Positions 4,257 to 63,704 of a stretch of 64,000 nt of DNA are shown piece by piece. Below the pieces are notes generated by a model that saw nothing but the letters and a program-made list of their open reading frames with translations, was not told the DNA's origin and ran no database searches. Within the stretch, counting starts at the first letter, position 1. Each line of letters starts with the position of its first letter. A program made the position numbers and the translations under genes. Source of the stretch: an uncultured Candidatus Cloacimonadota bacterium (GTDB lineage: Bacteria; Cloacimonadota; Cloacimonadia; JGIOTU-2); contig CAYNOU010000002.1 in assembly GCA_964398885.1 (NCBI GenBank), positions 22,762 through 86,761 on the forward strand. Direction: 5' to 3'.

Positions 4257-4378
4257 ATGAAAATCCTTTCTAACCACAAAGACACGAAGGTACAAAGATA
4301 AATGTAAAATTACGAATTACAAGTACATTGCGCTGATTCTAACACCATTTTTAATGGTGTTTTAATAAACAGTCCGCT

Positions 4379-4437: not shown

Positions 4438-4488
4438 CTGAAAGTTCACACCGAATAAAATTCGGCATTCGTTTCAGCACTCCTTTTT

Positions 4489-9519: not shown

Positions 9520-9591
9520 TGAATTAGTTGAATTGGTTGAATTTGTTGAATTGGTTGAATCAGTTAAATTAGTTCAACCAGTTTAACCAGT
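9520..9591. repeat. Eight tandem copies of a 9-bp unit (TGAATTNGT / TYAACCAGT) immediately upstream of the smpB start codon.
   Basis: tgaattagt tgaattggt tgaatttgt tgaattggt tgaatcagt taaattagt tcaaccagt ttaaccagt. The periodicity is seen directly. Confidence 0.7.
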
Positions 9592-9593
9592 TT

Positions 9594-9621
9594 CCGCCAG
9601 AGGCGGATCCGCCTCTGGCGG
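9594..9621. repeat. Perfect 28-bp palindrome ccgccagaggcggatccgcctctggcgg (repeat family A).
   Basis: It is a perfect inverted repeat. It shares GCCAGAGGCRGATCCGCC with the elements at 4379 and 39638. Confidence 0.7.
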
Positions 9622-9729
9622 ACAACCACTAGAATCTAATTTACTTTTTATAATATTTAATCATATCTGTGTTTATCTGTCCACCCTCCGTAGCATTGCT
9701 ATTGCGGAAGACGGGTGTAAATCTGTGGC

Positions 9730-16997: not shown

Positions 16998-19519
16998 CTA
17001 TCTTATTATAATCATCTTCTTTATTTCATTGTAACTCTCAGTTTTCAGTTGATAAAAGTAAATACCATTAGAAAGTGGACTACCATTTTCATCTTTTCCA
17101 TCCCAGATGATATTAGTCATTTGACATTGATTATTAGTCATTTGGTAAAGAGTTCTCACCAACTGACCTTTTATATTATAGATTTTTATATTTGATAATC
17201 TATGTAAACCTGGGGCTAAAAAGGAAATAGTAGTGGAAGTGCTAAAAGGATTAGGATAATTCTGATATAATAATATATCTGATGAAGATGTATAGAAATC
17301 ATCAATACCTTCCCCTTGCCATTCATAACAACCCATATCAACAATACTATTATATATTCTTGGATTTCCATCCAAATCAAATGGTGGTAGATTAAGACCT
17401 GTTGTATCAGGATTACCAGCATCAATACAGGGAGAATCATAATATAAATGATAATTGCTATTTAGTGTATCTACAAACTGCGGGTCAACAAACAAGTTAT
17501 AATAGATGTCGCATGAATCCTCATTTGCATTGACCGTAACAATTACTCCGAAATATGGGGGCACTCCAAAACCATTTATATCATTTTGCCAAAATAGATT
17601 ATATTCCAAAGTAGTAAGGATAGAATCCGCATAAATCCCATAACCATAATCTTCTCCATTATTACTAAAAACTATATTGTTTAAAATATTAGGAGAAGAT
17701 GAATTGGTTCTAATTCCATATCCATAACCATAACCATAACCACTATTACTAGAATGATACATACTCCCACCATCACCTTTCCCTGCATTATCACCTATCG
17801 TGTTATTATTTATAATTGGAGAAGAATTATTACAATTTATACCAAAGCCATATCCCTTACCCCCAGAACAATATCCCTCACCAATTCCACCATCTCCGCC
17901 ATTATCACTTATAATATTATCGTTAATACTTGGATAGGATGAATTAACACAGTATATTCCTGAACCATAACCATCTTCTGCAGGCCAACTTAAAGACTTA
18001 CCGGCATTACCACCATTTTTAATAATTGTATTATTACTAATATTCGGAGATGAATTATCACAATAGATTCCATATCCATTACCAGAACCACTTGATGGTG
18101 TCCTACTTTCACTACCATTACCATTATTATTGCTTATAATATTGAAACCATATCCTTTACTACCTAAAAACTGATAATAATAATCTCCACCTTCACCGCC
18201 ATTATTACCTATAATATTATTGTTAATATCTGGACAAGATGAATTTACACAGTATATTCCTGAGCCATAACCATCTCCAGGAGGATTTCCATCACCACCA
18301 TCACGACCATTATTAATTATTGTGTTATTGCTAATACTTGGAGAAGATGCATCACAATAAATCCCATAAGTTGCATATTCAACTTTAGAGTATGAGATTA
18401 AACTATTGGAAGAAGAATTCCCTTCAAATTTAATATGATTCCAATCGTTATGACGAGGTTCCTGTTCTCCTGAAGTAAAAAGAATAGAATCTGTTTCTGT
18501 TCCTTCCGCAAATAAGGTGCCATAAATAGTAAAAGAATAAAAACCCATAAACTTAATAGTAACACCATGTTCAATTATTAAAGTATCACTGAAATTAACA
18601 GAAATATCACCAACTACATTGTATGTTTCACCTGTTGACCAAATACCACTTTGTGAGCCTATTACTTCAAGGCTGAGTGTTACATTAGCAAGCGTTGTAT
18701 CTTCAACAAATTCAATTTCCTCAGGAATAGTATAAGGTTCCCAACCTTCATGAGAATAATGAACAGTATAAATTCCTGCTGAAAGCATAATAGCAAATGA
18801 GCCATCTTCATTTGTAAAGGTGCTGTCTGTTGTTGCTGAAGGATTTACACCAGAAAATAGAACTTTTGTTCCTAAATGATTGCTCATTCCTGCTAAATAG
18901 CAGAAGCCATCAACAGTAATACAATCATGATTTAGTGTAATTCCCGTTAATGTTGTATCTTCAAGAAGTTCAATTTCACCAGGAATAGTATAAGATTCCC
19001 AATACTTATGAGAATATTGCACAGTATAAGTTCCCGAAGAAATCTCTATAGCAAATGAGCCATCTTCATTTGTAAAGGTGCTGTCTGTAAAAGCAGGTGG
19101 AGATACTGCATTGAACAATACCTTTGTTCCTGAATGGTCACTCATTCCTGCTAAATAGCAGAAGCCATCAATGGTAACATCAACACTATAGAGGGTAATG
19201 TCTGGCAAAGTAGTATCTTCAAAAAATGCAATTTGACCAGGTATAGTATAGGATCCCCAACCTTCATGGGAATAATGTACAGTATAAATTCCTTCTGAAA
19301 GCACTATAGCAAATGAGCCATCTTCATTTGTAAAGGTGCTATCTGTAACAGCGGAAGGACTAACAGCATATAAAAGAGAACCTTGGTTCCCGAATGGTCG
19401 CTCATTCCTGCTAAATAGCAGAAGCCATCAACAGTAACTGACCGTGTTTGTGCCATTGCATTATTACCAATAATTAAAGGTAATAATAGCAAGAATGTTA
19501 GAATTACAATTTTTTTCAT
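16998..19519 (-). pseudogene. T9SS-sorted secreted protein with three CarboxypepD_reg-like repeats and beta-helix repeats. It is disrupted by a frameshift near 19370-19385, which separates the signal peptide.
   Basis: The 71-aa ORF (19304..19519) carries the signal peptide plus the first GFCYLAGMSDHSGTKVLF repeat. The 768-aa ORF continues in another frame with the same repeat twice more, NNxI beta-helix repeats, and a C-terminal NYPNPF...KKMIIIR sorting domain. The three repeats are near-identical at DNA level, so an assembly artifact is possible. Confidence 0.55.
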
Positions 19520-28977: not shown

Positions 28978-28991
28978 ATTACCTCTTTATT

Positions 28992-29020
28992 TTGCCACAG
29001 AGACACAAAGACACAGAGAA
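28992..29020. repeat. Repeat family B, TTGCCACAGAGACAC...ACAGAGA, upstream of the wzz start.
   Basis: ttgccacagagacacaaagacacagagaa. The same module recurs at 34378-34411 and 39619-39683, and in a TTGCCACGAA variant at 39376 and 59052. Confidence 0.6.
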
Positions 29021-29246
29021 AAAATTATTTAAAATAACTTTGCGATTTCTGCGACTTTGCGGTGAGAGAGTTCACCCTATCGTCTTTCATACAAGACGAT
29101 ATCCTGTCATTATCGTCTTATATACTTGCCAATAGAGAAGGGAACAATATTAAAATCGCAAACATAATTTCTTTTTCTTCCATAAATTCCTCACTTTTCT
29201 CATTCCCAAACTCAATTTGGAAATGAGAAATCTATATAGTTATCAT

Positions 29247-30990: not shown

Positions 30991-31671
30991 CTATTTTTCG
31001 GACTCAAGTTCATTGATAAGTTCTTCTGCCTTTTTAAGAAAAAATTCTTTTAATTCTTTAATAGTAACTTTTTTAATCATTCTGGGCAGTTTTTCTATTT
31101 TTCTAATTTCAAATAAAGATTGAGCTAACCAATGCTTTTCAATTCCGATATGCTTCTTTCTGGCATTTTCATAAATCTTATCAAATGATAAATATTCTTT
31201 ATCAATGAAATATATATCTACAAAATCCTTTGCATCATGTCTATCGAAAAGAGCAGAAAATTTATTACAAGCAATATCCAATAAGTTATCTACATAAATA
31301 CTAAACTCGTCGTTCATTTGAATAGGAGCTAAGCGATATGGAGAGTCAACAGCAAAGTCCATTTTCACTATTTCTTTCAGCTTTTCTTTATTTATTGCCC
31401 AACATTCAATAAATGTAGAGTATTCCCGCCGAAATTCAGCTTTTGCCCCAACTTTATCCAAAATATCAGGAAGTTGTGCTTTTGCAACCAGAATTGCCTT
31501 TGAATCGGTTGTAAAAAAATCAAGGTCTTCTGAAAAGCGATGTTTTAAGTAAAAGGCAGATAATGCACTACCGCCTGTGAAAAAGAAAAGTTTTCCAACC
31601 TCACTCTTACCTAATCCTTTAAGTATCTTCTTTTGAAAATTAGTGAGAATTCCCATATTTTTTTCTAACAT
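30991..31671 (-). CDS. Pol-beta superfamily nucleotidyltransferase, AbiEii/DUF1814-like (putative toxin), copy 1.
   Basis: FTGGSALSAFYLKHRFSEDLDFF has the hG[GS] motif and the [DE]h[DE]h motif. It is a paralog of 31914..32579. Confidence 0.55.
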   Translation of the reverse strand: MLEKNMGILTNFQKKILKGLGKSEVGKLFFFTGGSALSAFYLKHRFSEDLDFFTTDSKAILVAKAQLPDILDKVGAKAEFRREYSTFIECWAINKEKLKEIVKMDFAVDSPYRLAPIQMNDEFSIYVDNLLDIACNKFSALFDRHDAKDFVDIYFIDKEYLSFDKIYENARKKHIGIEKHWLAQSLFEIRKIEKLPRMIKKVTIKELKEFFLKKAEELINELESEK

Positions 31672-31921
31672 CTGGTAATGAAAAATACCATTCCCAGAAC
31701 TCTCTATGTGAACAACTAAGATTTAATTCTTTTAAATACTTAAATATATTTTTTGTACCAATTTCCTGTAAATCCTTGTCAGTTCCTCGTTCTAATACTC
31801 TTACGATATACCATTTTAGAAACATTTCCGATTTGAGTTCTTTCTCGGAAAAATCGTAATCCCAGATAAGCTTCTTGTTTATTTTCATTTTTTGCGAAAA
31901 ATTACCAAAATTTTTACTCAT
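31640..31921 (-). CDS. Small (93 aa) partner protein of the nucleotidyltransferase (putative antitoxin/regulator), copy 1.
   Basis: Overlaps the downstream NTase by 32 nt. Shares the IWDYD...W..W pattern with 32572..32856. Confidence 0.4.
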   Translation of the reverse strand: MSKNFGNFSQKMKINKKLIWDYDFSEKELKSEMFLKWYIVRVLERGTDKDLQEIGTKNIFKYLKELNLSCSHREFWEWYFSLPDVRKKYGNSH

Positions 31922-32579
31922 TTATTTCAATCAATTTATCTGCAATATTTTCTATGTCTTGAATCAAGGTACCGAAATCAGGCATTTCTATCCATTTTAT
32001 TATAGAAAAATTCTGTCTCTCTGCTAAGTATAAAATCCGAGCCACATCAAGAGGAAATATTCCAGCAGCTTTACTACCAGCATTTTTTATTGCTTTAGAT
32101 AATGATAGACCCATTTTAGTACAGAATGCCCAAATATCAACAATATCCTTTGGCTCGTTTCTATCAACAAGTGCTGTAACTTTATTAGCCAATATATTCT
32201 CGGGACTATCAATTCTGCCAAGAATCGGATGATTTCTTATAAGTCCGATATGAGATGGCACATCATTTACAAATTCTATCTTCAGTTCAATTTCTTTATC
32301 CACAATTACACATCTGGCAAAACGGTCTTCTCGTAACAAAATATCTAACTTCCATTCTTTGTTTTTTGTTATTGCATTGAAAATTCTATCAACCCACAGA
32401 CTAAATTCAGGTTTATCGTTCACAAAGAAATCAAGGTCATCAGAAAAACGATGATGTAAAAAAACTCTTGATGCAACTGTTCCATCTGTCAGATAAAATT
32501 TTTGATCTATTTTTTGTATAACCGAAAGAAAACTATCTTGCAAAGGATACAGTTTGTTGAAATAAAAATTCTTATCCAT
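31914..32579 (-). CDS. Pol-beta superfamily nucleotidyltransferase, AbiEii/DUF1814-like (putative toxin), copy 2.
   Basis: LTDGTVASRVFLHHRFSDDLDFFV. The downstream part is similar to copy 1 (KDFVDIY / KDIVDIW). Confidence 0.55.
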   Translation of the reverse strand: MDKNFYFNKLYPLQDSFLSVIQKIDQKFYLTDGTVASRVFLHHRFSDDLDFFVNDKPEFSLWVDRIFNAITKNKEWKLDILLREDRFARCVIVDKEIELKIEFVNDVPSHIGLIRNHPILGRIDSPENILANKVTALVDRNEPKDIVDIWAFCTKMGLSLSKAIKNAGSKAAGIFPLDVARILYLAERQNFSIIKWIEMPDFGTLIQDIENIADKLIEINE

Positions 32580-32856
32580 TGAGCTTCTCTGGATGTAGCT
32601 CTGTTAGCCATTTTAGTAAAAAGTCATACCCTCGTCGTCGGCTATTAGACCTAATTCTGTTTCTTACCTGCGGCCATCTCTTTACAAATTCAGGAAAACC
32701 TAATAATTTTATAACATCTTGATAATAAGCATATTCTAATAATCTTTGTGTTGCCCAAAGATAGTCTAAATTACCAATATGCATTTTATGATTTAAAATA
32801 TCAATAAATGTTCTTTCATCTATGTCATAATCCCATATCCAGTAAATACTTTTCAC
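32572..32856 (-). CDS. Small (94 aa) partner protein of the nucleotidyltransferase, copy 2.
   Basis: MKSIYWIWDYDIDERTF... Overlaps the NTase by 8 nt. It is a paralog of 31640..31921. Confidence 0.4.
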   Translation of the reverse strand: MKSIYWIWDYDIDERTFIDILNHKMHIGNLDYLWATQRLLEYAYYQDVIKLLGFPEFVKRWPQVRNRIRSNSRRRGYDFLLKWLTELHPEKLNG

Positions 32857-33109
32857 TAAAGTTCTCCTTAGGCTTACACTTGAATGAATTCTGCAAAAAT
32901 ATGGAAAATTCCCCTAACTTGCCGTTCTCGTGATCCCCGCATCCGCGAGGAGGGAATCCAGTAGAAATACTTGTCCTCACGAAAGTGGGGAAAGGACTGT
33001 GGATTTCCAATAGATTCCCAATCAAGTTGGGAATGACAATGTTGGGAATGACATGCGTATGCCATTTTGCAGATCTCATTTACAATTTAAAACAGTGCAA
33101 AAAAACCTT

Positions 33110-34377: not shown

Positions 34378-34411
34378 TTTGCCACAGAGACACGGAGAAC
34401 ACAGAGATAAT
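34378..34411. repeat. Repeat family B copy upstream of hutI.
   Basis: tttgccacagagacacggagaacacagagataat. Confidence 0.6.
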
Positions 34412-37904: not shown

Positions 37905-38306
37905 TTAATCCTTTTCTTCAATCATTTTCATCATCGTTTTTTCTGCTTGATTAATAAATCTTTCTGCATTTTTAATTTGATGTTCTGCGTCTTCTTTACT
38001 TATTTCTACAAAATCTCTATAATCCGCATCTTCTCTAATATTTTTGGCTGTTGGCAACAATTTACTCAATTCCTTAGGAAAAAATCCTTCTTTAACAATA
38101 TACCTATTAAACAAGGAAATAACGCCTGAGTGTTTACTTGAATCCAACTCCTTCAATGCGAGTAATGCCTTTGTTGCGGAAAACATTGCATAATAACTTC
38201 TATTTGTAGACAATTTATAATGCCCATGTTGTAAACTATCTTTTGATTCAATAAGAATTTCCTTCGCTCGTTCCATCCTATATTTTGCTAATTCTATTCT
38301 ACTCAT
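37905..38306 (-). CDS. HEPN domain protein (HepT-like toxin of a MNT-HEPN module).
   Basis: 133 aa all-helical with ...NIREDADYRDF... (R-x-x-x-x-Y, HEPN-like). Overlaps the upstream MNT gene by 4 nt. Confidence 0.55.
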   Translation of the reverse strand: MSRIELAKYRMERAKEILIESKDSLQHGHYKLSTNRSYYAMFSATKALLALKELDSSKHSGVISLFNRYIVKEGFFPKELSKLLPTAKNIREDADYRDFVEISKEDAEHQIKNAERFINQAEKTMMKMIEEKD

Positions 38307-38644
38307 AAAGTTACTCCTTCTTTTTCTACTTTTTCAAGGAAAAATGACTTTAACTCCTTATTTTTCTTATATTCAAAAACACTGGATACAACAGGAGATA
38401 TTGGAATATCAGTTTCATAAAAATATTCAGCCGAAATGTCACTTATCTTATCTCTTACACCTTTTTTCCTTTTAACTAAAATAAAGATATCAATATCAGA
38501 ATCTTTGTTAAAGTCACCTCTAACTTTAGAGCCAAAAAGTTTGATAAAAACTATCTCATTCCCTAATTTTTCTCTTAACTCTTTAACAAAAGATGATACT
38601 ACCCTTGCCTCTTTTTTTGTTAAATATTTATATTTTTTTTGCAT
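38303..38644 (-). CDS. Minimal nucleotidyltransferase (MntA-like antitoxin of a MNT-HEPN module).
   Basis: LFGSKVRGDFNKDSDIDIFILV shows the GS...DxD pol-beta NTase motifs. 113 aa. Confidence 0.65.
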   Translation of the reverse strand: MQKKYKYLTKKEARVVSSFVKELREKLGNEIVFIKLFGSKVRGDFNKDSDIDIFILVKRKKGVRDKISDISAEYFYETDIPISPVVSSVFEYKKNKELKSFFLEKVEKEGVTL

Positions 38645-39362: not shown

Positions 39363-39555
39363 CTGAAAATAGCTTTTTTGCCACGAACCACACGAACTAA
39401 TCGGTCTCGGCCAGTCTTGGCTAGGCCAAGCCTAGACAGGCGCCCAGACGGACACGAACAATATTTTGTTCATAAAATTAAATCCGTTTAAAATTGTTTA
39501 CCCTGTGGAATAAAATCAAAGATTTTAATGCAAAGCATTATTCCACAGGGTGAAT

Positions 39556-39616
39556 AATTTTCATAATCCTTTGTGTCCGATTTGTTTTCGGGACATGTAT
39601 GTTTCATATGAAAATA
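39556..39616. repeat. About 60-bp direct repeat, copy 1, containing the hairpin gtccgatttgttttcgggac.
   Basis: aattttcataatcctttgtgtccgatttgttttcgggacatgtatgtttcatatgaaaat. A second copy lies at 39728-39785. Confidence 0.7.
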
Positions 39617-39618
39617 CC

Positions 39619-39683
39619 TTGCCACAGAGACACATCATGCCAGAGGCAGATCCGCCTTAGGCGGAGAGAACACAGAGATAATT
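39619..39683. repeat. Composite repeat: a family-B element (ttgccacagagacac ... agaacacagagataat) interrupted by a family-A palindrome (catgccagaggcagatccgccttaggcggag).
   Basis: Direct comparison with 28992-29020, 34378-34411, 4379-4396 and 9594-9621. Confidence 0.65.
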
Positions 39684-39727
39684 TCTATTTCTTTTTTGAT
39701 TATCCTCTGTTTCAAGCCTCTGTGTAT

Positions 39728-39785
39728 AATTTTCATACTCCTTTGTGTCCCGATTTATCGGGACATGTATGTTTCATATGAAAAT
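39728..39785. repeat. About 60-bp direct repeat, copy 2, containing the hairpin gtcccgatttatcgggac.
   Basis: aattttcatactcctttgtgtcccgatttatcgggacatgtatgtttcatatgaaaat. The hairpin also occurs at 59112-59129. Confidence 0.7.
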
Positions 39786-39975
39786 CACCTTTTTATTATT
39801 TCAATTCGGGATAAACCCGAATCTACCCACCAGTTGTCGGGTATCCCCAATTTAATTGGGGACAGGTTTATCCTGTTGCTGCAATAAAACAAGAAACTCA
39901 TCTTTAATCTTGATTCATCTTTTTAGGCCCTTGTAGTTATCACTTTTTTTCACAAATTCTTTGGTGAAAAATCTT

Positions 39976-40212
39976 TTATAGGTCACCAAAGACCTCATCT
40001 TCAGTTTCTATATTTCCGACCTCAAAATCCTTAAAACCTTTTCTAATTGAGTTCATAAGTTCCGCATTAAGATTTATATCAATTGTTTCTATTAGCTTTA
40101 TAAAATCATCAATATTGATTAATACAGACTTAATCTCATTATTTGAATAAATATATTCTACTTTAGGAATATTATACTGTCTTGTAATCTTCATAAGTTC
40201 ACTTGGTAACAT
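39976..40212 (-). CDS. Small protein, possibly a Phd/YefM-type antitoxin, orphan.
   Basis: 78 aa. ...ITRQ...EIKSVLINIDDFIKLIETIDINLNAELMNSIRKG... resembles the Phd/YefM fold pattern. No partner toxin ORF lies downstream, only the repeat hotspot. Confidence 0.3.
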   Translation of the reverse strand: MLPSELMKITRQYNIPKVEYIYSNNEIKSVLINIDDFIKLIETIDINLNAELMNSIRKGFKDFEVGNIETEDEVFGDL

Positions 40213-42064: not shown

Positions 42065-42164
42065 AATCCTAAATCCGAATTTCTAAATCCTAAATAAATT
42101 CAAAATTCAAATTCCAAATTAAAATGTGTGCCAAAAGCCTCATTTGGCATTTGACATTTGTAAT

Positions 42165-43184
42165 TTATTTGTAATTTGATATTTGAAATTTGTCATTTTT
42201 TTTGTGGTTGATCAATTCCACAAGTTTCTCCTTTAACTTCTTTAATTCCATTTCTGTCTCAAAACCAGCTGCAAGTTTATGTCCACCGCCGCCAAATTTT
42301 TCTGCAATTTTCTGGACATTCAAATCTTTTGACCTAAGGGAAACCCGATAATGGTCAGTATTTAATTCACGAAAATAAATAACAACATCTCGTTCATTAG
42401 AAGGCTTAACCTCTTTTGAGAAACCGTCTGTCAATTCCATATCTGCATTACAACCTTTTAGCATCTTCTGGGTCGTAATGTAAAAAGCAATGCTTACATT
42501 TCGTCCTATTTTGTGGAATTCCAATGTTGACAAAGTCTTACCCAGGAGTTTCAACTCATCTGTGCTTCTATTTTCAAAGATATTAAGAGAGCAGAGATTA
42601 TTATCTGCACCTATGGCAAGCAGTTCGCTCGCTACTGTAAATGTCTGGGGAGACACATTCTTATTTGCAAAATTATTGGTATCATAAATTAAGCCTGTAT
42701 AAAGACAATTAGCAAATTTTCTTTTCCAATAGGATGAAAAACCTTGAATTTCTTCTTGTAAGAGCAAATAGATAATCTCGCATACTGAAGAAGCATTTGT
42801 ATCAATGTAAAAAATGGTATTTGGTATCTCCTCTAATTTGTAATGATGGTCTATACATATCAACTGCTTACAGTTTTCAAATAAATTTTGAATTTTTTGT
42901 CCTGCTCTCTTTCTTTCATTATAGTCAAGCATAAAGACTATTTGATTGGTAGCGTTGGAGATTTGGGTTTCAACTTTATCTGATAAACCGAGAAAGTCAT
43001 ATTTATTTGAAGGAAGGTCTTGATTTATGATTCTAATACTTTTGCCATGTCCTTTTAGGAATAGATAAATGGCAAATTGTGCACCAATAGCGTCACCATC
43101 TGGATTCTCATGTGTTGTTATAACAAAATTTTGATTAGTATAAATAAGGTTTTTTAATTCAATCTTAAATTCATCTAATGTCAT
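42165..43184 (-). CDS. nrnA: Bifunctional oligoribonuclease / pAp phosphatase NrnA (DHH-DHHA1).
   Basis: DGDAIGA (DHH motif I) and GGGHKLAAGF (DHHA1). Confidence 0.8.
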   Translation of the reverse strand: MTLDEFKIELKNLIYTNQNFVITTHENPDGDAIGAQFAIYLFLKGHGKSIRIINQDLPSNKYDFLGLSDKVETQISNATNQIVFMLDYNERKRAGQKIQNLFENCKQLICIDHHYKLEEIPNTIFYIDTNASSVCEIIYLLLQEEIQGFSSYWKRKFANCLYTGLIYDTNNFANKNVSPQTFTVASELLAIGADNNLCSLNIFENRSTDELKLLGKTLSTLEFHKIGRNVSIAFYITTQKMLKGCNADMELTDGFSKEVKPSNERDVVIYFRELNTDHYRVSLRSKDLNVQKIAEKFGGGGHKLAAGFETEMELKKLKEKLVELINHKKNDKFQISNYK

Positions 43185-48549: not shown

Positions 48550-48565
48550 ACTGTATTTTTCTCAT

Positions 48566-48592
48566 ACAAAAAATGCTCCGATTAATCGGAGC
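48566..48592 (-). terminator. Intrinsic terminator-like hairpin plus a U-run in the rimP-nusA leader, about 25 nt upstream of the rimP ATG. Putative attenuator.
   Basis: The minus strand reads gctccgattaatcggagc followed by attttttg. It lies between the divergent promoter region and the rimP start. Confidence 0.45.
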
Positions 48593-49232
48593 TAACTCGC
48601 TCTGCTTTTTGTTAATTTTGTTAGTTTATAATTTATTTGTCAAATATTATAGGATTTTTCATAGGTTCCACTGTCGCTTATTGGGAAGTAGCCCTACATA
48701 AAAAAAGACAGAATAAAAAAAATATTCTGCCTTTTTAATCTTATACTTGTCCGAAAATTAGTCAATTACCAAATTTATTATTTCAATAACATCATCTTTT
48801 TAATTTTATATTATTATCCAGGTTTATAATTTACCCATTCGATAGCTATAATCATAAGATGATTAGAAAAAGGTTGATATTTTTTGAATACGATATTATT
48901 TATTTAAAAAATATTTGTTACACAAAAGAAACTTCATTTAGCATACAGTTTTCAACGAACATTTAACATATAACAACTTCTTTTCAAATTGAATATCATT
49001 ATGTTCATCATTTAGATGATTTTGTATGATATTTTTTAAGAAGAATTGATTAAAAAAAATTTAAAACTTGACACGAAAGTTAATCAGTTCTTCTAAAAAC
49101 ACCAAAATAAAAAATTAGAAATTTAAAAATAGTAAAAAGGAAATAATATTTTTATATTATTTTTTGTTGTTCTTTTAAGATGAAAATGATTCTATAAAAA
49201 GTTTTATGAAAAATTATTAATCGGAGGTATTT

Positions 49233-54857: not shown

Positions 54858-57056
54858 TTATTTAACAAAAATTTTTCCAGTGCCTTTGGAAATTACTTTT
54901 CCAATTTTTGAAAATCCTTGAATTCCCTTTTTCTGAAATTTGTCTATTAATTCTATACATTCATCTTCTGGAATAGAAACTAACAAACCACCAGAAGTTT
55001 GTGCATCGGATAAAAGAACTTTCTGAACATAAGAAATGGAAGAACTCCATTCTACAATTGGCTCAACAAATTTCAAATTGGATAAAGTCCCTCCAGGAAT
55101 GACATTTCCAGCTGCAAATTCAACTGCGCCATTAAGGAGTTTTACCTTGTCAGCAAATACTTCAACATTCACATCACTCGCTTTAGTCATTTCAGATAAA
55201 TGCCCCAATAAACCAAAACCCGTCACATCTGTGCATCCATGAACTGTAAAATCATTTAATATTTGAGATGTGTAATTATTCAAAGTTTCCATTGTCTCAA
55301 CTAATTCTGTTTTTTGACTTTCAGAAAGTAATCCTCTTTTTAAAGCAGTTGATAATATTCCTGTTCCAATTGGTTTTGTAAGAAGAATTACATCACCAAG
55401 TAGCATACCTACATTTTTCCAAATTTTTTCTGGATGAACAAGACCAACTACAACCATACCATATTTCGGTTCTGTATCTTCAATAGAATGTCCACCAATA
55501 ACAGTTATTCCCGCCTCTTTAGCTTTCTCATTTGCACCTTGTAAAATCTTCTCTAACACACTCATAGGTAACCGATTCGTAGGAAATCCAACTATATTCA
55601 ATCCAAATAATGGTTTTGCACCCATTGCATAAATGTCACTTAAGGCATTTGCTGTAGCTATCATTCCAAAATCAAAAGGATTATCTACAATAGGAGTAAA
55701 GAAATCCACAGTAACAACAACCGCAGTATTATCATCAATTTTATAAACAGCAGCATCATCAGCAGTATTTGTACTTACTAAAATATTAGTATCAACTGGA
55801 ATCGGCAATTTTTGTAATATTGTTTCCAATATCTGTGGTTCAATCTTACAAGCACATCCCATTCCGTGAGTAAAATGAGTTAATTTGATTTCTTCTCTCA
55901 TATCAATTATAATATGATCTTTCTTTGCTTGAAATTTTTGCACAGTTTTAATAATAATTTCTGCTGCTTGCTCAATTTCTTCTTCAGTTGTAAATTTACC
56001 CGTAGAAAATCGAATAGTTCCCATTGAATAATCGATAGGCACATTCATAGCTTGCAAAACAGCCGAAACATCTATCCTGTCAGAATGGCACGCAGCACCA
56101 GCAGAAGCTGCAACTCCACTCATTTCAGAAAGAATAGTGTTCGCTTCGATTTTATAAAATCCTAAACTTAAAGTATTAGGCAAACCTTTTTCTGGATGCC
56201 CATTCAAACGAAAATCAAGATTTGATTCAGTGAGCTTTTCATGTAACAGGTCCCTCATCTTCTTCATATGTTTACAATTTTTATCCAGATCATTACCTGC
56301 AATTTCGCATGCTTTACCTAAGCCAACAATTTCCAATACATTTTCTGTCCCGGGACGCAAATTCTGCTCCTGATTTGCTCCATGTATTAGTTTCTGCAAT
56401 CTTGTTCCTCTTTTTATATAAAGAGCACCAACACCTTTGGGTGCATATAATTTATGACCTGCAATTGAAAGGAGATCTACTCCTAATTCTTTTACATCCA
56501 CTTTAATTTTGCCCATAGATTGAGCTGCATCTGTATGGAAGTAAACATTGTATTTTTTTGCAACTTTTGATATGTCTTCAATTGGCTGAATCGTTCCAAC
56601 CTCATTATTTGCATGCATAATTGTAATCAAAATAGTTTGAGGAGTAATAGCTTTTTCAACATCATCTGGGTTAACCAAACCATATTCATCTACAGGTAGA
56701 TATGAAATATTGAGTCCCTGTGATTCTAAATATTCACAAACTTCTATTACTGAAGGATGCTCAATTGAAGAGGTTATAATATGATTTCCCCTATCTTTAT
56801 GAGACAATGCAATCCCTTTGATTGCAAAATTATTGGATTCAGAACCACCACTTGTAAAGATAATCTCATCAGAATGAGCATTAATCATATTTGCAACTTG
56901 TTTGCGTGCATTTTCAACAGCTTTTTTTGTTTGAATTCCATACCAGTGCATACTTGAAGGATTACCAAAATGATTATCTAAAAAAGGTCTCATAGCTTGT
57001 GCTACTTCAGGTGCAATTGGAGTTGTTGCATTATAATCTAAATATATTGGTTTCAT
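54858..57056 (-). CDS. selD: Fusion protein: NifS-like cysteine desulfurase / selenocysteine lyase (N-terminal) fused to selenide, water dikinase SelD (C-terminal).
   Basis: N-terminal half: LDYNATTP...SSMHWYG...FTSGGSESNN, a class V aminotransferase. C-terminal half: THGMGCACKIEP (the SelD GCxCK motif, Cys-type), then a PurM-like fold. 732 aa. Confidence 0.8.
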   Translation of the reverse strand: MKPIYLDYNATTPIAPEVAQAMRPFLDNHFGNPSSMHWYGIQTKKAVENARKQVANMINAHSDEIIFTSGGSESNNFAIKGIALSHKDRGNHIITSSIEHPSVIEVCEYLESQGLNISYLPVDEYGLVNPDDVEKAITPQTILITIMHANNEVGTIQPIEDISKVAKKYNVYFHTDAAQSMGKIKVDVKELGVDLLSIAGHKLYAPKGVGALYIKRGTRLQKLIHGANQEQNLRPGTENVLEIVGLGKACEIAGNDLDKNCKHMKKMRDLLHEKLTESNLDFRLNGHPEKGLPNTLSLGFYKIEANTILSEMSGVAASAGAACHSDRIDVSAVLQAMNVPIDYSMGTIRFSTGKFTTEEEIEQAAEIIIKTVQKFQAKKDHIIIDMREEIKLTHFTHGMGCACKIEPQILETILQKLPIPVDTNILVSTNTADDAAVYKIDDNTAVVVTVDFFTPIVDNPFDFGMIATANALSDIYAMGAKPLFGLNIVGFPTNRLPMSVLEKILQGANEKAKEAGITVIGGHSIEDTEPKYGMVVVGLVHPEKIWKNVGMLLGDVILLTKPIGTGILSTALKRGLLSESQKTELVETMETLNNYTSQILNDFTVHGCTDVTGFGLLGHLSEMTKASDVNVEVFADKVKLLNGAVEFAAGNVIPGGTLSNLKFVEPIVEWSSSISYVQKVLLSDAQTSGGLLVSIPEDECIELIDKFQKKGIQGFSKIGKVISKGTGKIFVK

Positions 57057-57058
57057 AA

Positions 57059-59002
57059 CTATCTTCCAATTTCTTTATACCCTTTTTCAGTAATAACTCT
57101 ATAATCCCCTTTTCGGATGGTAATACCTTCGCTATCAAATTGGGTAAGCATCAAAAGACATATTTTACGATTCCCTTCAATCAAATCGCGGAACTCAGAA
57201 ATTTTTATACCCTGAGGATTATCATTAAGATATTTTAATAGTTTTTCTCTTGCGCCATTAATAACAGAGGAATGAATAAAATTCCCATCAATATTACACA
57301 ACTTCCCTTTATTTATTAGCAATCCAATAATTTGTTTTATCTTCTTATCATTATAACCTTTTTTCTCAGCAATGGAGCATAAATCAGATAAGAGTGGGGT
57401 TTTCATCCCTGAATTTTTAAAGTAATTTTCCACAAATGCTATTTGCTTCTCATCATCTTTAGATATATTTAATTTATGGGTTTTCAAAGCCCATGTATTT
57501 TGGATTTGTTTTATTTTTCCTTCATCTTCAAGCTTTTTCATAATAATTTGAATCCATTTGTCATTTGATGAATCGTTTTTCATTCCAAACAAACCGACTA
57601 ATTCCTTAAAAGTTTTTCCCGTTTCTAAAAACGGATTTTTTTTATGATATTCTTTCAGATTTTCAAGAATCCTTTTTTCAGTTCTGCTTTTCTCTTCTTT
57701 TTTAAAAAGAAATATATTCTTATCTGATGATAGAATAGAAATATCTTCAGGTATAGACTTAAAAATTATCTCTCTAATTTTTTCTTCTGGTAAATTCAGT
57801 TTTTTTGCAATATATTCATAATTTAACGGATACAAACTTTTTCTAACTTCTGTAGCAATTAATTCAGATATATCACCAGAAGCAATTTTATAGAGCTTGT
57901 TAATTACATTTTCATTTCTTCTACGATGATGAAGTGGATGTGCATCAAGCACAATTCCCCCACCAAGAGTTAATTCGGACGAGGTATTTCGTAGAACAAA
58001 TTTATCACCGTAAAAAGCAATACAAGGAGAATCAAGATGTATCTGAACAATACCACTTTGTCTCGGTTTCAAAATTTCTTTATCAATAAGATGTATTTTT
58101 GCTTGTGCCTGCAATGTACCCAAAAGAAATATTGCTTGTGACCATCTGCCAAAACTGCTATTGTGATTAAACAAAGTAATTTTTGCATCAATCATATCTG
58201 TTGTCTGTAAAGGCATATTAGAGATAAGCATTCCTCTTGAAAAATTTTCTTTATTCAATCCTATCAGATTCAAAGAAGCTCTATCTCCAGCAGTTATTTC
58301 CTCAACCTGGGTTCCATGACGCTCCATTCTACGAATTCTCAACTTTTTTGCATTAGGCAGAAGATAAACTTTTTCATTATCTCTTAACTTACCACTAATA
58401 ACAGAGCCGTTTACAACGGTTCCAAAGCCTTTTACTGTAAATATCCTATCAATATACATTCTAAAAACATCACCAGTTGGTCGTTGTGGAATTTCTTCAC
58501 TAATTTTTACTAAAAGCTGCTTTAATTCCTCAATACCATATCCTGTTTTTGATGAAACTTTTATAATTGGAAATTCTTCAAGAAAAGTTCCTTTTATAAA
58601 ATCAGCAACTTCTTGTTCTACAATTTTGAGAAGCTCTTCATCTACAAGGTCAATCTTTGTTAAAGCTACAAATCCTTTTTTTATCCCAAGAATCTTCATA
58701 ACATTAAGATGCTCAACTGTTTGTGGCATAATTCCACTATCTGCAGCAATAACGAGCATAACAAAATCAATTCCGCTTGCTCCTGCAACCATAGTATTCA
58801 CAAAATCTTTATGACCAGGAACATCTATTATTCCAATACTCTGTCCATTTGGTAGCTCAATATGTGCGAAACCAAGATTAATGGTTATTCCTCTAATCTT
58901 TTCTTCTTTGTGAGTATCACATTCAATATTTGTTAAAGCTTTTATTAAAGCAGTTTTCCCATGGTCAATATGGCCTGCTGTTCCCATTATTAAATGTTTC
59001 AT
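57059..59002 (-). CDS. selB: Selenocysteine-specific translation elongation factor SelB.
   Basis: N-terminal G-domain MGTAGHIDHGKTALIKALT...DVPGHKDF...TKIDL. 647 aa with a C-terminal winged-helix extension. It lies between selA and selD. Confidence 0.85.
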   Translation of the reverse strand: MKHLIMGTAGHIDHGKTALIKALTNIECDTHKEEKIRGITINLGFAHIELPNGQSIGIIDVPGHKDFVNTMVAGASGIDFVMLVIAADSGIMPQTVEHLNVMKILGIKKGFVALTKIDLVDEELLKIVEQEVADFIKGTFLEEFPIIKVSSKTGYGIEELKQLLVKISEEIPQRPTGDVFRMYIDRIFTVKGFGTVVNGSVISGKLRDNEKVYLLPNAKKLRIRRMERHGTQVEEITAGDRASLNLIGLNKENFSRGMLISNMPLQTTDMIDAKITLFNHNSSFGRWSQAIFLLGTLQAQAKIHLIDKEILKPRQSGIVQIHLDSPCIAFYGDKFVLRNTSSELTLGGGIVLDAHPLHHRRRNENVINKLYKIASGDISELIATEVRKSLYPLNYEYIAKKLNLPEEKIREIIFKSIPEDISILSSDKNIFLFKKEEKSRTEKRILENLKEYHKKNPFLETGKTFKELVGLFGMKNDSSNDKWIQIIMKKLEDEGKIKQIQNTWALKTHKLNISKDDEKQIAFVENYFKNSGMKTPLLSDLCSIAEKKGYNDKKIKQIIGLLINKGKLCNIDGNFIHSSVINGAREKLLKYLNDNPQGIKISEFRDLIEGNRKICLLMLTQFDSEGITIRKGDYRVITEKGYKEIGR

Positions 59003-59188
59003 AATTTTTTACCGCGAATGTACGCTAATTTAAGCGAATATTTTTTCTTTGCCACGAATTTACCCCATGAAATCCTTCAAAGAAGGAATCCCAACACACC
59101 CGTTCTCCGTAGTCCCGATAAATCGGGACGAAGGATGAATCGGGATTATTTCACAGGGCAAGCACGAACTGGCACGAACATTTATGTA

Positions 59189-60577
59189 TCAATGTAAAAG
59201 GCATTTTTGTATTTCTTGTGATACATAATCTATATCTTCTTCATTAATTGTTAAAACATCAAAATGGATATTTCCTTCTCTGAGAATTCCAAGTATTGGC
59301 CTTTCTAAATGCAACAATTGTTTAAACAACTTTTCTGCAAAATTTTTCGTATTATCCTTGTTAATCAGCATTACTGAATAGCTATCTAATTTTAGACGAG
59401 GAAGGGTTCCTCCGCCACAATGTGCAATACTCTCTACTATTTCAGATTGTATATGAAATTTTGCTAACTCATTTTGTAATTTTTTTGCAATATTATAAAG
59501 CTCGGATTTACTTTTTTTTAGCATCCTATAAACAGGTATTTTTGTAAAAACATCTTCATCTTTAATATAATATCGCAACACTGTGGATAAAGCGGCAATA
59601 GTCATTTTACCCACTCGGAGTGCTCGCATAAGTGGAGCTTTTGAAAGTTTAGATATTAATTCCTTTTTACCTGCGATTATCCCTGCTTGAGGACCACCAA
59701 GTATTTTATCACAACTAAAAGTAACTAAATCTGTTCCGTAGTTTAGACTGGAAACAGCATCAGGTTCATTCCCAAAATGTAAATCTTTTTGTTTTCTTAT
59801 AAGTCCGGAGCCCAAATCATACATTAAAATCAGATTATATTTTCTTGCAAGCTTTGATAATTCTTTTAGTTCTACCTCTTCTGTAAAGCCTTCTATATAG
59901 TAATTTGATTTATGAACTTTTAAAATGATTCTTGTATCACCAGTAATTGCATTTTCATAATCTGATATTCTGGTTCTGTTTGTTGTGCCAACTTCAACCA
60001 TTTTTGCACCGCTTGCCTTCATTATATCAGGAATCCTGAAAGAACCACCAATTTCTATCAATTCTCCACGAGATATAATTGCTTCTTTATTTTCAGCAAA
60101 AGTTTTTAAACAGAGCAGGACTCCAGCGGCATTATTATTAACCACAACTGCATCTTCTGCTTTTGTAACAAATTTAATTAATTCTGAAATGTGTTTATTT
60201 CTCTGCCCTCTTTTACCTTTATCTAAATCAAATTCTAAATTAGAATATCCAAGTATGATTGGTTCTAATTCTTTTAGAACATCTTTACCAAGTGGAGCTC
60301 TTCCAAGATTTGTATGAAGTATAATTCCAGTTGCATTGACCATTGGTTTAAGTGATTTTTTGGTTATAGATTGGATAATAACTTTAATATCCTCAATAAT
60401 TTGGTTTAAGTTTTTTGCAGGCTTTGCTTTTAAAACATTTTTTCTATACTCATCCAAAATTTGTCTAATTGAATATGTAATCAAATCATTTCCAAATTTG
60501 TTTTTCAATTTCATTATTTCAGGATGATTTAATAATTTATCCACGCCGGGAATCTTTTTAAGTTCTTCTTTACACAT
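59189..60577 (-). CDS. selA: L-seryl-tRNA(Sec) selenium transferase (selenocysteine synthase).
   Basis: MCKEELKKIPGVDKLL...NATGIILHTNLGRAPL...NNNAAGVLL...RGELIEIGGSFRIPDIM...VGTTNRT are SelA hallmarks. The start is placed at ATG 60575-60577, because the track GTG lies inside a repeat. Confidence 0.85.
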   Translation of the reverse strand: MCKEELKKIPGVDKLLNHPEIMKLKNKFGNDLITYSIRQILDEYRKNVLKAKPAKNLNQIIEDIKVIIQSITKKSLKPMVNATGIILHTNLGRAPLGKDVLKELEPIILGYSNLEFDLDKGKRGQRNKHISELIKFVTKAEDAVVVNNNAAGVLLCLKTFAENKEAIISRGELIEIGGSFRIPDIMKASGAKMVEVGTTNRTRISDYENAITGDTRIILKVHKSNYYIEGFTEEVELKELSKLARKYNLILMYDLGSGLIRKQKDLHFGNEPDAVSSLNYGTDLVTFSCDKILGGPQAGIIAGKKELISKLSKAPLMRALRVGKMTIAALSTVLRYYIKDEDVFTKIPVYRMLKKSKSELYNIAKKLQNELAKFHIQSEIVESIAHCGGGTLPRLKLDSYSVMLINKDNTKNFAEKLFKQLLHLERPILGILREGNIHFDVLTINEEDIDYVSQEIQKCLLH

Positions 60578-60587
60578 AGTTAATCCT

Positions 60588-60648
60588 AAAAAATTTGCCA
60601 CAGATTTAGACCAATCAAAAAAATGATTACCTTTATTTCTGTGGCAAA
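60588..60648 (-). terminator. Hairpin (11-bp stem TTTGCCACAGA/TCTGTGGCAAA, about 32-nt loop) plus a U6 run between tRNA-Sec and the selA RBS. Terminator-like or a processing element.
   Basis: The minus strand reads tttgccacagaaataaaggtaatcatttttttgattggtctaaatctgtggcaaatttttt aggattaact ATG. It uses the family-B TTGCCACAGA motif as an inverted repeat. Confidence 0.4.
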
Positions 60649-60662
60649 CAATAAAATTATAA

Positions 60663-60757
60663 AGCCGAGAGGGCAGGAATCGAACCTGCCACAGACGGTT
60701 TTATCCGCCCACTACTGATTTTGAAGACCAGTTGGAACACCAGTTCCATCCTCTCAA
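60663..60757 (-). tRNA. selC: tRNA-Sec (selC), anticodon UCA.
   Basis: Minus-strand fold: 8-bp acceptor (TTGAGAGG/CCTCTCGG), 6-bp D-stem TGGAAC/GTTCCA with the 4-nt loop TGGT, 6-bp anticodon stem with loop CTTCAAA (UCA at 34-36), a long variable arm, and a 5-bp T-stem GCAGG/CCTGC with loop TTCGATT. About 94-95 nt. CCA is not encoded. Confidence 0.75.
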
Positions 60758-63656: not shown

Positions 63657-63704
63657 TTGCGTTCCCAATCCCCAATTCAATTGGGGAGGGCTTTGGGAAC
63701 GAGA
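63657..63704. repeat. Palindromic repeat family D with a nested inner hairpin (tccccaattcaattgggga).
   Basis: ttgcgttcccaatccccaattcaattggggagggctttgggaacgaga. The outer arms are identical to 41250-41280. The inner hairpin recurs at 39844-39862. Confidence 0.65.

Follow-up and report, generated by a model that had tools for sequence, protein, structure and literature searches.

The sequence upstream of ispD in the DNA analysed here, a 64,000-nt window of a contig from an uncultured Candidatus Cloacimonadota bacterium, raises a simple question: what fills 613 nt (positions 39363-39975) inside a long string of minus-strand genes, and how did it come to be there? The window is AT-rich (~31% G+C) and nearly all of its genes lie on the minus strand. 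Gene names in the string were taken from Pfam labels and the open reading frame (ORF) list. In gene sense, the gap is preceded by rimP, nusA, ylxR, infB, DUF503, rbfA, a DHH phosphoesterase gene, truB, ribF and a 78-aa ORF, and is followed by ispD, a nucleotidyltransferase/HEPN pair, a gene for a 927-aa GATase/SIS protein and ispF. For ispD, the best named relatives came from 'Candidatus Cloacimonetes' metagenome-assembled genomes (MAGs), at 71-72% identity. The gap probably arose recently and in a lineage-specific manner, as a stack of repeat modules that are of one general kind and contain no gene; the modules would have spread as DNA and may be processed in the transcript.

A lineage-specific expansion upstream of ispD

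The sequence of the gap was recovered without one difference in five independently assembled Joint Genome Institute (JGI) metagenome contigs, which rules out an assembly artefact. All of the repeats and hairpins listed in an earlier note on this DNA were present at the positions given there. The neighbourhood was compared with those of related Cloacimonadota, designated here by locus and with the identity of their ispD to that of the window: L127 (87%), L125/L126 (82%), L130/L131 (72%) and L128/L129 (71%). The spacer between the 78-aa ORF and ispD measured 122 nt in L127 and L128 and 94 nt in L130/L131, against 613 nt in the window. Just the first ~40 nt after the stop codon of the 78-aa ORF, which contain a weak hairpin, were common to the window and the relatives; this hairpin was conserved in L128, L130 and L131 (89-95%), and is ancestral and outside the insertion. 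The 27 nt before the ispD ATG were conserved among the relatives (aatgatcaacgacaaaaataactaaATG), and were replaced in the window by gttcgtggcaaaaaagctattttcagATG, ending ...GTTCGTGTGGTTCGTGGCAAaaaagctattttcagATG. Because the shared part is confined to the first ~40 nt and the conserved leader has been replaced, ~500-570 nt of the gap are new in the window lineage. The gap is a lineage-specific expansion, and the native leader of ispD has given way to repeat-derived arm sequence.

The 78-aa ORF (39976-40212) occupies the same position in L127, L128 and L130/L131, and a 208-aa methyltransferase gene is found instead in L125/L126. The earlier note had called this ORF Phd/YefM-like, which was not borne out: no Pfam or NCBIfam match was obtained, and the best solved-structure match was the RelB antitoxin (E = 0.057). 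That faint match is one of the points in favour of the gap being a wrecked gene with the repeats as a secondary matter, the gene being either the missing toxin partner of the 78-aa ORF, as the note had proposed, or a lost member of one of the two small-gene families described below (GxxExxY or four-helix bundle). Each direct repeat of the gap also has a Shine-Dalgarno (SD)-like AAAGGAG followed by ATG, ORFs of 14-45 aa begin at the repeated TTTCAT/ATG boundary, and a 46-aa ORF has been annotated on the same module in a relative. Against this, the relatives have the 78-aa ORF directly before ispD, 94-122 nt apart, with no partner gene between. No protein remnant was detectable in the gap, where tblastn with the GxxExxY and four-helix-bundle proteins returned noise. 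There is no minus-strand ORF of at least 60 aa in the gap, as the note had stated, the longest being 45 aa. The short ORFs that start within the 52-nt module of the direct repeats are in different frames in different copies, so the module is not coding. A wrecked gene is extremely unlikely.

Other spacers of the gene string vary widely in size among the relatives and are filled with the same kinds of module; that between the DHH gene and truB measures 29, 100, 140, 226 or >650 nt among these genomes. The >650-nt version (L128:4740-5391, NIOZ-UU1) contains a duplicated 5' fragment of truB (MNGILNIDKPAGITSFDVV...) and a duplicated ~110-nt repeat module. Since both are duplicated, partial duplication of a gene start accompanies the modules in L128, as with the pseudo-starts in the direct repeats of the window. 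At 30991-33079 and 37905-38644 the isoprenoid genes ispD and ispF are interspersed with genes of toxin-antitoxin or abortive-infection type, among them a nucleotidyltransferase/HEPN pair, two AbiEii genes and small ORFs resembling DUF6922; this content varies among relatives, with a PIN_10/DUF433 pair in L128 and DUF6577 in L125.

The gap had been described as a hotspot of GC-rich repeats. It is GC-rich relative to the window (38% against ~31% G+C) and not in absolute terms, and its hairpin density is just ~2x the intergenic average of the genome, so that length is its main peculiarity. Perfect hairpins containing GC occurred at 4.5 per kb in intergenic and 0.21 per kb in coding sequence throughout the window. 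Folding of the whole gap against shuffled sequences gave z = -8.3 for the minus and z = -7.8 for the plus strand.

Such local structure is strong, and identity of the 52-nt module is 91-95% between species with just 82% identity in the ispD protein; both would suit one or more small regulatory RNAs (sRNAs) encoded in the gap, another proposal of the earlier note. A search of the whole window with Rfam at the gathering threshold gave it no support, returning tRNA-Sec alone and no rRNA; sub-threshold matches in the gap were to eukaryotic miRNA and snoRNA models and of a generic hairpin kind. The two strands fold equally well, and promoter-like sites (9 vs 4.6) and terminator-like sites (2 vs 0.6) were barely above shuffled expectation. 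The module also has copies at unrelated loci, and an insertion splits its copy in L054, a Cloacimonadota locus. An sRNA locus is very unlikely.

Dispersed modules and the make-up of the gap

The earlier note had held that modules unique to this locus would rule out mobile REP-like elements; the modules were found to recur both in the window and in related genomes. Chance expectations for their counts were taken from shuffled sequence. The 15-mer TTGCCACAGAGACAC had three exact matches in the window and five matches at <=3 mismatches (0.67 expected), and the palindrome GCCAGAGGCAGATCCGCCTTAGGCGG, referred to below as the A palindrome, four matches (0.01 expected), its copies outside the gap including those at 4382 and 9593-9622. 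GTCCCGATAAATCGGGAC gave six strand-hits at three sites (0.00 expected) and TCCCCAATTTAATTGGGGA four strand-hits at two sites (0.02 expected). tccccaattNaattgggga, from the small hairpins of the gap, was present again at 63669-63687 and in L127:565-586.

The heptamer TTGCCAC followed by tandem words was found on the plus strand at 28992, 34379, 39378, 39619, 59049 and 60595, the words being CACAGAGA, CACAAAGA or CACGAAC; in gene sense such an arm reads (CTCTGTG)n-GTGGCAA-N-ATG. Examples of the tandem arrangement are CACAGAGA-CACAAAGA-CACAGAGA at 28996-29019 and CACGAAC-CACACGAAC at 39382-39397, the arm before ispD thus having the TTGCCAC terminus common to the other arms of the window. These sites lie 11-46 nt from minus-strand start codons, that at 39619 from a pseudo-start inside direct repeat 1. 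The spacer of the Wzz-family gene has a CGCAAAG-type array further upstream, and 28985-29125 folded with z = -4.4. The selA-selB spacer (186 nt; -60 kcal/mol, z = -5.95) shows a split of the CACGAAC array like that before ispD, its two parts lying at 59049-59059 and 59162-59179.

The features of the gap and the arms elsewhere in the window are collected in Table 1. In gene sense the gap runs from the ancestral hairpin through four palindromes, direct repeat 2, an ORF-less cassette, direct repeat 1, the long hairpin and the split CACGAAC arm to a 15-nt leader. The ORF-less cassette is a hairpin made of a right arm at 39619-39682 (gene sense ATTATCTCTGTGTTCT...GTGTCTCTGTGGCAA, 39682-39619) and its partner at 39699-39725; folded on the minus strand (39615-39730) it gave -37.2 kcal/mol and z = -3.1, with outer and inner arms paired. 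Its right arm is split by ~31 nt, and the same two parts, TTGCCACAGAGACAC and AGAACACAGAGATAAT, are contiguous at 34379-34411. The insertion was seen as an alignment gap against the arms at 34379 and 28992 and four arms of GxxExxY genes.

The direct repeats on either side of this cassette were 90% identical over 63 columns. Their 52-nt module recurs in L125/L126 at another locus, between a DUF6922-like ORF and an SLBB gene, and this copy matched copy 1 at 95% (over 56 nt) and copy 2 at 91%. Copy 1 folds weakly (z = -1.5). The 24-nt arms of the long hairpin are 92% complementary (fold z = -7.2); a member of its family, ACCCTGTGAAAT...ATTTCACAGGGT, is inserted in the word array upstream of ribF in L127, and a half-copy lies at ~59150. 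A CRISPR array, which would call for at least three identical repeats at regular intervals with spacers that all differ, was considered and rejected: the 60-nt repeat has just two copies, lying 172 nt apart, and dispersed repeats make up the 'spacer' itself.

The small palindromes behave as insertions that prefer word arrays, because the arrays that harbour the A palindrome and the ACCCTGTG...CACAGGGT-family palindromes are uninterrupted at other sites or in other species. One palindrome is present in the ribF-upstream arm of L127 and absent from L130. Among the palindromes common to the window and its relatives were tccccaattaaattgggga upstream of truB in L127, tcccgatttatcggga twice in L128 and caggtttatcctg in L130:4114-4128. 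The 18-nt palindrome GTCCCGATTAAATCGGGA, of the same family as window 39746-39765 and 59112-59129, interrupts a GxxExxY reading frame after ...EKIIGC in L054 (L054:2313-2330, Cloacimonadota NIOZ-UU1).

Palindromes of this sort might instead derive, together with the 52-nt module, from repetitive extragenic palindromic (REP) sequences or their hairpin-forming doublets (REPINs), or from IS200/IS605 elements as palindrome-associated transposable elements (PATEs), moved by an HUH tyrosine transposase elsewhere in the genome and unrelated to the word arms. They are short, perfect or imperfect, contain G+C in an AT-rich genome and are enriched ~20-fold between genes; they are dispersed, common to related species and uniformly oriented with the gene strand, and they insert into other repeats and once into a gene. 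A conserved GTAG-like head is nonetheless missing, the palindromes have many sequences and not one or two families, no Y1 transposase was seen among the annotated genes of the window or of the relatives' loci, and the insertions fall repeatedly within word arrays. This origin is quite unlikely.

Table 1. Modules of the gap upstream of ispD and related arms elsewhere in the window.
Feature	Position	Strand	Remarks
Leader, 15 nt between word arm and ispD ATG	39363-39377	-	Gene sense aaaagctattttcag-ATG
CACGAAC-variant word arm TTGCCACGAACCACACGAAC	39378-39397	-	Plus strand TTGCCACGAAC-CACACGAAC; gene sense GTTCGTGTGGTTCGTGGCAA
GC-rich insert inside CACGAAC array	39398-39450		Holds hairpin cttggc-tag-gccaag cttggctaggccaag, 39416-39430
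GACACGAAC, CACGAAC array continuing beyond insert	39451-39459	-	
Long hairpin, core ACCCTGTGGAATAA...TTATTCCACAGGGT	39490-39561		Arms 39490-39513 and 39538-39561
Direct repeat copy 1	39554-39615	-	52-nt conserved module ATATGAAACATACATGTCCCGAnnnnTCGGGACACAAAGGAGTATGAAAATT (gene sense); inner hairpin degraded (39575-39594)
CACAGAG-variant right arm, outer part TTGCCACAGAGACAC (plus)	39619-39633	-	
~31-nt insertion splitting right arm	39634-39666		A palindrome GCCAGAGGCAGATCCGCCTTAGGCGG, 39639-39664
Same right arm, inner part AGAACACAGAGATAAT	39667-39682	-	Identical to 34396-34411
Left partner arm, inverted	39699-39725	-	Gene sense ACACAGAGGCTTGAAACAGAGGATAAT
Direct repeat copy 2	39726-39785	-	Nested hairpin intact, z = -6.4; outer stem ATTTTCATAT/ATATGAAAAT; inner stem TGTCCCGA/TCGGGACA, 39746-39765, perfect
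Four abutting small hairpins ttcgggataaacccgaa, tacccaccagttgtcgggta, tccccaatttaattgggga, caggtttatcctg	39805-39875		39805-39821, 39824-39843, 39844-39862, 39863-39875; z = -3.6
Weak hairpin tttttcaccaaagaatttgtgaaaaa	39946-39971	-	Directly after stop of 78-aa ORF; fold not significant, z = -1.4
Solo right arm TTGCCACAGAGACACAAAGACACAGAGA	28992-29022	-	14 nt before ATG of Wzz-family gene
Uninterrupted solo right arm	34379-34411	-	Fills 45-nt ispF-amidohydrolase spacer, 12 nt from ATG
CACGAA arm split by 100-nt nested hairpin	59049-59179	-	Between selA and selB; hairpin with GTCCCGATAAATCGGGAC (59112-59129)
Minimal hairpin TTGCCACAGA...TCTGTGGCAA	60595-60647		Between tRNA-Sec and selA

Further word arrays were present in the window, including (TTGAATTAG)x6 at 9519-9574 and arrays at 42070-42202. 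In the smpB leader (9519-9622), ~6 tandem 9-nt words TTGAATTAG (plus strand) reach the start codon, and before them lies a perfect palindrome of 30 nt, TCCGCCAGAGGCGGATCCGCCTCTGGCGGA, with GGATCC at its centre; upstream of this leader lies a CACAGAT-type array split by a hairpin (9690-9729). A composite module of GCAATGyACTTGTAATTCGTAATTTTACATTTATCT with CTyTGT words after it occurs in the leader of a transketolase-like gene (4268-4335) and in an unrelated spacer of the 82% relative (L125:17775-17825). Stems of GAACTTTTCGC / GCTGAAAGTTC enclose small hairpins at 4415-4485 and in several spacers of L125, L128 and L130.

The selenocysteine gene set at 54858-60755 is complete and on the minus strand, with repeat hairpins in both internal spacers. 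It comprises tRNA-Sec (60667-60755), selA (59189-60577), selB (57059-59002) and a 732-aa fusion (54858-57056) of a class-V aminotransferase (NifS/SCL-like) with an AIR-synthase-type SelD domain. Two other features of the window were recorded. A 258-nt unit is repeated 2.9 times (80% matches) at 18694-19438, in a 768-aa beta-helix/CarboxypepD_reg gene with a type IX secretion system (T9SS) sorting domain (Por_Secre_tail), and extends into the next, 71-aa ORF. A 683-nt spacer of 22% G+C (48550-49232) separates the divergent rimP and TonB-dependent receptor genes; it holds the sole strand switch of the window, at a local turn of the cumulative GC skew. DnaA boxes were rejected as an explanation of this AT-rich spacer, since they showed no enrichment (22 vs 25 expected window-wide).

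Word arms around two families of small genes

The word arms were traced beyond the Cloacimonadota by an exact scan for the 15-mer TTGCCACAGAGACAC in one genome per species (596 Gb), which returned at least 119 stretches. The raw count is no evidence in itself, because ~1,100 chance matches are expected for a 15-mer. Most of the matches listed continue as the same word array, however, and several genomes had many copies. Acidobacteriota, Chloroflexota, Calditrichia, Leptospiraceae, Geobacteraceae, Verrucomicrobiota, Bacteroidia, Nitrospinota, KSB1, Stahlbacteria, Gammaproteobacteria (including the cultured Endozoicomonas acroporae) and two Cloacimonadota are among the matches listed, as are 72 sites with at least three words: 39 solo arms next to a gene start, 29 hairpins (arms <=160 nt apart) and four with room for an ORF. 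Forms without an ORF prevail among these sites.

All six GxxExxY ORFs (PF13366 PDDEXK_3 / TIGR04256) among the word-selected loci listed adjoin such arms. On the left, an upstream stop codon is followed by (TT)GCCACAGAG-N-CACAGAG and the ATG of the ORF; on the right, the stop codon is followed after 10-60 nt by CTCTGTG-N-CTCTGTGTCTCTGTGGCAA and, 10-25 nt further, by the ATG of the next gene. The arm DNA of these cassettes is of the type TTGCCACAGAG.../...CTCTGTGGCAA. The CACAGAG arms of the window (28992, 34379 and 39619, the last with its 31-nt insertion) align column for column with right arms of GxxExxY genes from Cloacimonadota (L054), Geobacteraceae, Verrucomicrobiota and Gammaproteobacteria.

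As a sample selected by words is biased towards words, 80 metagenome loci were chosen by GxxExxY protein similarity alone, 76 of them with both flanks. At least two C-R-C-N-R-A-G words in the expected orientation were found on at least one side in 62/76 and on both sides in 37/76, against a background of 5/723 windows. The words varied across cassettes (CACAGAG, CGCAGAG, CACGAAG, CGCAAAG, CACAAAG), and the dominant variant was identical in left and right arm in 35 of the 37. Complementarity of arms was measured by a simple alignment score, RNA duplex energies being set aside for their implausibly large absolute values. A score of at least 14 was reached by 46% of arm pairs from the same cassette, 13% from different cassettes and 0% of shuffled pairs (p = 2e-13). 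The upstream flank was purine-richer than the downstream flank in 64/76 (p = 9e-9), and neighbouring genes were co-oriented with the cassette ORF in 44/60 cases upstream and 45/63 downstream. The arms of a cassette are complementary to one another, with a polarity relative to the ORF.

The second family consists of four-helix-bundle genes (PF05635/TIGR02436), whose product is named after the intervening sequences (IVSs) of 23S rRNA. In the SLBB-Wzz spacer of L128 such a gene stands between GTCAGAAAG-type arms, namely CAGAAAGGCAAAAGTCAAAAGTCAGAAAG... and, inverted, CCGACTTTCACCTTTCCGACTTTCA..., after which comes aaaataataaaggagtaatATG of the Wzz-family gene. In the window, the orthologous spacer (28978-29246) has just arms and no ORF, and ends ...CTCTGTGTCTTTGTGTCTCTGTGGCAaaataaagaggtaatATG. 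Four-helix-bundle genes in L208 and in the viral contig L212 are flanked by arms of yet other variants; the protein and a two-sequence alignment, each used to scan viral contigs, yielded one and the same truncated gene. A tblastn search of plasmids with the protein matched mainly heterocystous cyanobacteria. Ten plasmid regions were examined (cultured cyanobacteria, Riemerella and Azospirillum), of which nine had arrays on at least one side and seven had inverted complementary arrays, for example GGGAAAAGGGGAAAGGG / CCCTTTTCCCCTTCCCC (Nostoc), CAGGAGTCAGGAGTCAG / CTCCTGACTTCTGA (N. punctiforme) and ACAGAGGACGGAGGACAG / CCGTCCTCTGTCTTCTGT (Azospirillum). Such arrays frame four-helix-bundle genes on Nostoc, Anabaena, Geminocystis and Picosynechococcus plasmids, and are what the cyanobacterial literature calls short tandemly repeated repetitive elements (STRRs). 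Several of the plasmid genes sit between cas genes. On a Pseudanabaena galeata plasmid (L218, NZ_CP112875.1 45965-46912) the gene lies between cas6 and cas4, and the arrays are very long, with (AAAGCTA)n upstream and (AAAGCCA)n downstream in the same orientation, an exception to the inverted-arm rule. The modules of the window are thus dispersed, the gap is new in its lineage, and arms of the kind it contains are the frames of two families of small genes across phyla.

The same data can be read in terms of cis-regulation, with the arrays as sites at which binding of the ribosome or of a protein (candidates being CsrA, S1, a cold-shock protein or another global regulator) tunes downstream translation or mRNA stability, and the small ORFs merely having the same type of leader. 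The proximity of the window arms to start codons is in keeping with this, as are a credible gene start within 30 nt in at least 20 word-selected loci, the fixed polarity with which purine-rich, SD-like sequence lies upstream of the ORF and pyrimidine-rich sequence downstream, and the retention of some cassettes at orthologous spacers. TAACTGA repeats (PMC4679880) and paired repeats of Geobacter metallireducens (PMC2700814) have been proposed to act in the same way. The downstream genes, however, have no common function (ispD, a Wzz-family gene, an amidohydrolase gene, selB, nuoG, trpC, pheT and others). Word variants differ among cassettes yet match within one, which fits pairing or inverted repeats better than one binding protein. 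Turnover among close relatives is rapid and arms are broken by insertions, and an identical 15-mer occurs in many phyla alongside a gene prone to horizontal transfer (PMC3424549). A cis-regulatory function is unlikely, and accumulation of repeat modules remains the preferred reading.

Proposed spread and processing, and likeness to known systems

In this model of accumulation, the basic cassette, which occurs in many phyla, consists of a left arm of tandem 7-9-nt purine-rich words, e.g. (C-R-C-N-R-A-G)n, an optional ORF of ~120 aa for either the GxxExxY PD-(D/E)XK protein or the four-helix-bundle '23S rRNA IVS protein', and a right arm of complementary words, often ending ...GTGGCAA, 10-25 nt before the next start codon. 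The window would then contain ORF-less derivatives alone: right arms standing solo before ispD, selB and the Wzz-family and amidohydrolase genes, a single arm-loop-arm hairpin (39619-39725), palindromes in arms and the 52-nt nested-hairpin module in two copies. Successive insertions and one local duplication would have enlarged the spacer from ~100-120 nt to 613 nt and replaced the ispD leader. The modules would have spread as DNA, by whatever mechanism. By analogy with IVSs, they may be co-transcribed with the flanking same-strand genes, so that their stems lie in the mRNA, and RNase III might cut these stems, as in 23S rRNA, and separate the ispD transcript from that of nusA-infB-truB-ribF. 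They would be largely neutral or selfish and not a dedicated regulator of ispD; a dedicated regulatory role is less likely than neutral or selfish accumulation.

A number of observations weigh against parts of this model. Neither a GxxExxY nor a four-helix-bundle gene, nor a remnant of one, was found in the 64-kb window (tblastn: noise only), so that a 'parent' element in this genome is putative. No target-site duplication was visible at cassette flanks, and the annotated genes of the window and of the relatives' loci included no transposase, REP-associated tyrosine transposase (RAYT) or integrase; the case for mobility comes from comparisons of presence and absence. The 52-nt module and the small palindromes are tied to the word arms by co-location and insertion, and share no sequence with them. 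The words of the CACGAAC module before ispD are direct and not inverted, and its fold was no better than that of shuffled sequences (z = -0.9). Hairpin cassettes are kept at the DHH-truB and glmS-ispF spacers in species whose ispD is 71-87% identical, which is also compatible with a host function. RNA pairing between arms would be expected to leave a G·U bias, and none was found (G·U-compatible mismatches: 60 sense vs 73 antisense, p = 0.30). Because of this, and because both strands of the gap fold equally, the arms have the look of inverted repeats at the DNA level, and cleavage by RNase III is an analogy. The purine/pyrimidine polarity and the co-orientation of neighbouring genes do point to some role of transcription or translation; one possibility is that the purine-rich words serve as ribosome-binding sequence for the cassette ORF.

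The closest precedents are the STRRs and the IVSs. STRR heptamers form hairpins of unknown function between hupS and hupL in one operon (PMC2670836), and an STRR lies inside a structural RNA helix, that of RNase P RNA, according to a title cited in PMC2858038. The window resembles these in having tandem words of 7 nt (7-9 nt here) in intergenic DNA. STRRs have been described for heterocystous cyanobacteria, whereas the present arrays are from Cloacimonadota and have words such as CACAGAG and CACGAAC. An STRR-type hairpin with an inverted array is seen at 39619-39725, 28985-29125 and 60595-60647, and is lacking at the CACGAAC module before ispD and at the solo arm at 34379.

The IVS of Coxiella burnetii 23S rRNA has an S23p ORF after two or three tandem GACAGAT heptamers, whose number depends on the strain, and a 28-bp stem of terminal inverted repeats that is cut by RNase III at the first repeat (PMC4990558). 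Points of likeness are a stem formed by terminal inverted repeats, heptamers in tandem immediately before the ORF's ATG, copy numbers that vary among strains, and decay of the ORF in some strains; the protein also belongs to the family that stands between word arms in L128, L208 and L212 and on the plasmids. IVSs differ in lying in helix 25 or 45 of 23S rRNA, whereas the window elements lie between protein-coding genes and have no ORF. Stem cleavage by RNase III was established experimentally for the IVS (PMC4990558) and is an analogy for the window elements.

Direct TAACTGA repeats just upstream of start codons have been described in Beggiatoaceae, Cyanobacteria and Bacteroidetes, and no mechanism was given for the way they are distributed (MacGregor 2015, PMC4679880). 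They are likewise tandem heptamers before unrelated genes, patchy across phyla and suspected of horizontal spread; they differ in consisting of a single heptamer, nearly always direct and unpaired, ending 1 nt before the ATG, with no ORF family reported. In G. metallireducens, paired tandem octa- and heptanucleotide repeats were catalogued as putative regulator sites (PMC2700814). These are arrays of 4-5 tandem 7-8-nt words, intergenic and paired on opposite strands as here, with the words GTTGCTYN and MTYCTGA, which the authors read as protein-binding sites. The Geobacteraceae loci L048 and L118 have CACAGAG arms, with a GxxExxY gene between the arms in L048. Genes of the 23S_rRNA_IVP family have been noticed scattered inside cas loci (PMC3936711), and PDDEXK_3 has been listed as a family of unknown function with multiple transfers (PMC3424549). 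No paper linking word arrays to GxxExxY genes, or STRRs to the IVS protein, was found in the searchable literature, which leaves subscription literature outside.

REP sequences and the bacterial interspersed mosaic elements (BIMEs) built from them, BOX-type mosaic elements and miniature inverted-repeat transposable elements (MITEs), Correia elements for instance, are like the window elements in being short and intergenic, in forming hairpins, in their modular, nested build and in having ORF-less copies that far outnumber coding relatives. For the window elements no REP head, RAYT, target-site duplication or recognisable transposase was seen in the window or the relatives' loci, and arms of the window type are tandem words whose variant changes from copy to copy. 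They resemble MITEs in that the window right arms have termini in common with a longer ORF-bearing element, including one in a Cloacimonadota relative; the cassette ORFs encode a ~120-aa PD-(D/E)XK protein or a four-helix bundle, and no known transposase. The 'REP/MITE-like accumulation' of the earlier note thus holds in that the modules are dispersed, the gap is lineage-specific and the ORF-less arms share termini with ORF-bearing cassettes, and fits less well in that no GTAG-type head and no RAYT were seen in the window or the relatives' loci, so that the elements do not look like strict REPs. It is broadly right and imprecise, STRR/IVS-type tandem-word stem cassettes without an ORF being the better fit.

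A wider view, held tentatively, is that the arrays of the window, STRRs, the heptamers of 23S IVSs, the paired Geobacter sites and orphan GxxExxY and four-helix-bundle genes may all belong to one unrecognised, cross-phylum class of mobile mini-cassettes. Inverted arms would form a frame for varied small ORFs; the cassettes might spread horizontally without a canonical transposase, possibly by homing through the PD-(D/E)XK nuclease, settle precisely in the interval from a stop codon to the ribosome-binding site that follows, and reshape operon spacers through the solo arms and ORF-less hairpins that they leave behind. The gap upstream of ispD would then be a small graveyard of such cassettes.

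For the locus itself, insertion accounts for the odd 613-nt hole in a tight string of housekeeping genes. Spacers full of near-identical short repeats are relevant to gene calling, operon prediction and MAG assembly in Cloacimonadota. The association of arms with PF13366/TIGR04256 and PF05635/TIGR02436 genes in many phyla and on cyanobacterial plasmids is of more interest than the locus. If this association holds, the nature of STRRs, the origin of rRNA intervening sequences and the scatter of both small-protein families, including within cas operons, would be brought together in one testable object, which may represent a new mode of DNA mobility or mRNA processing.

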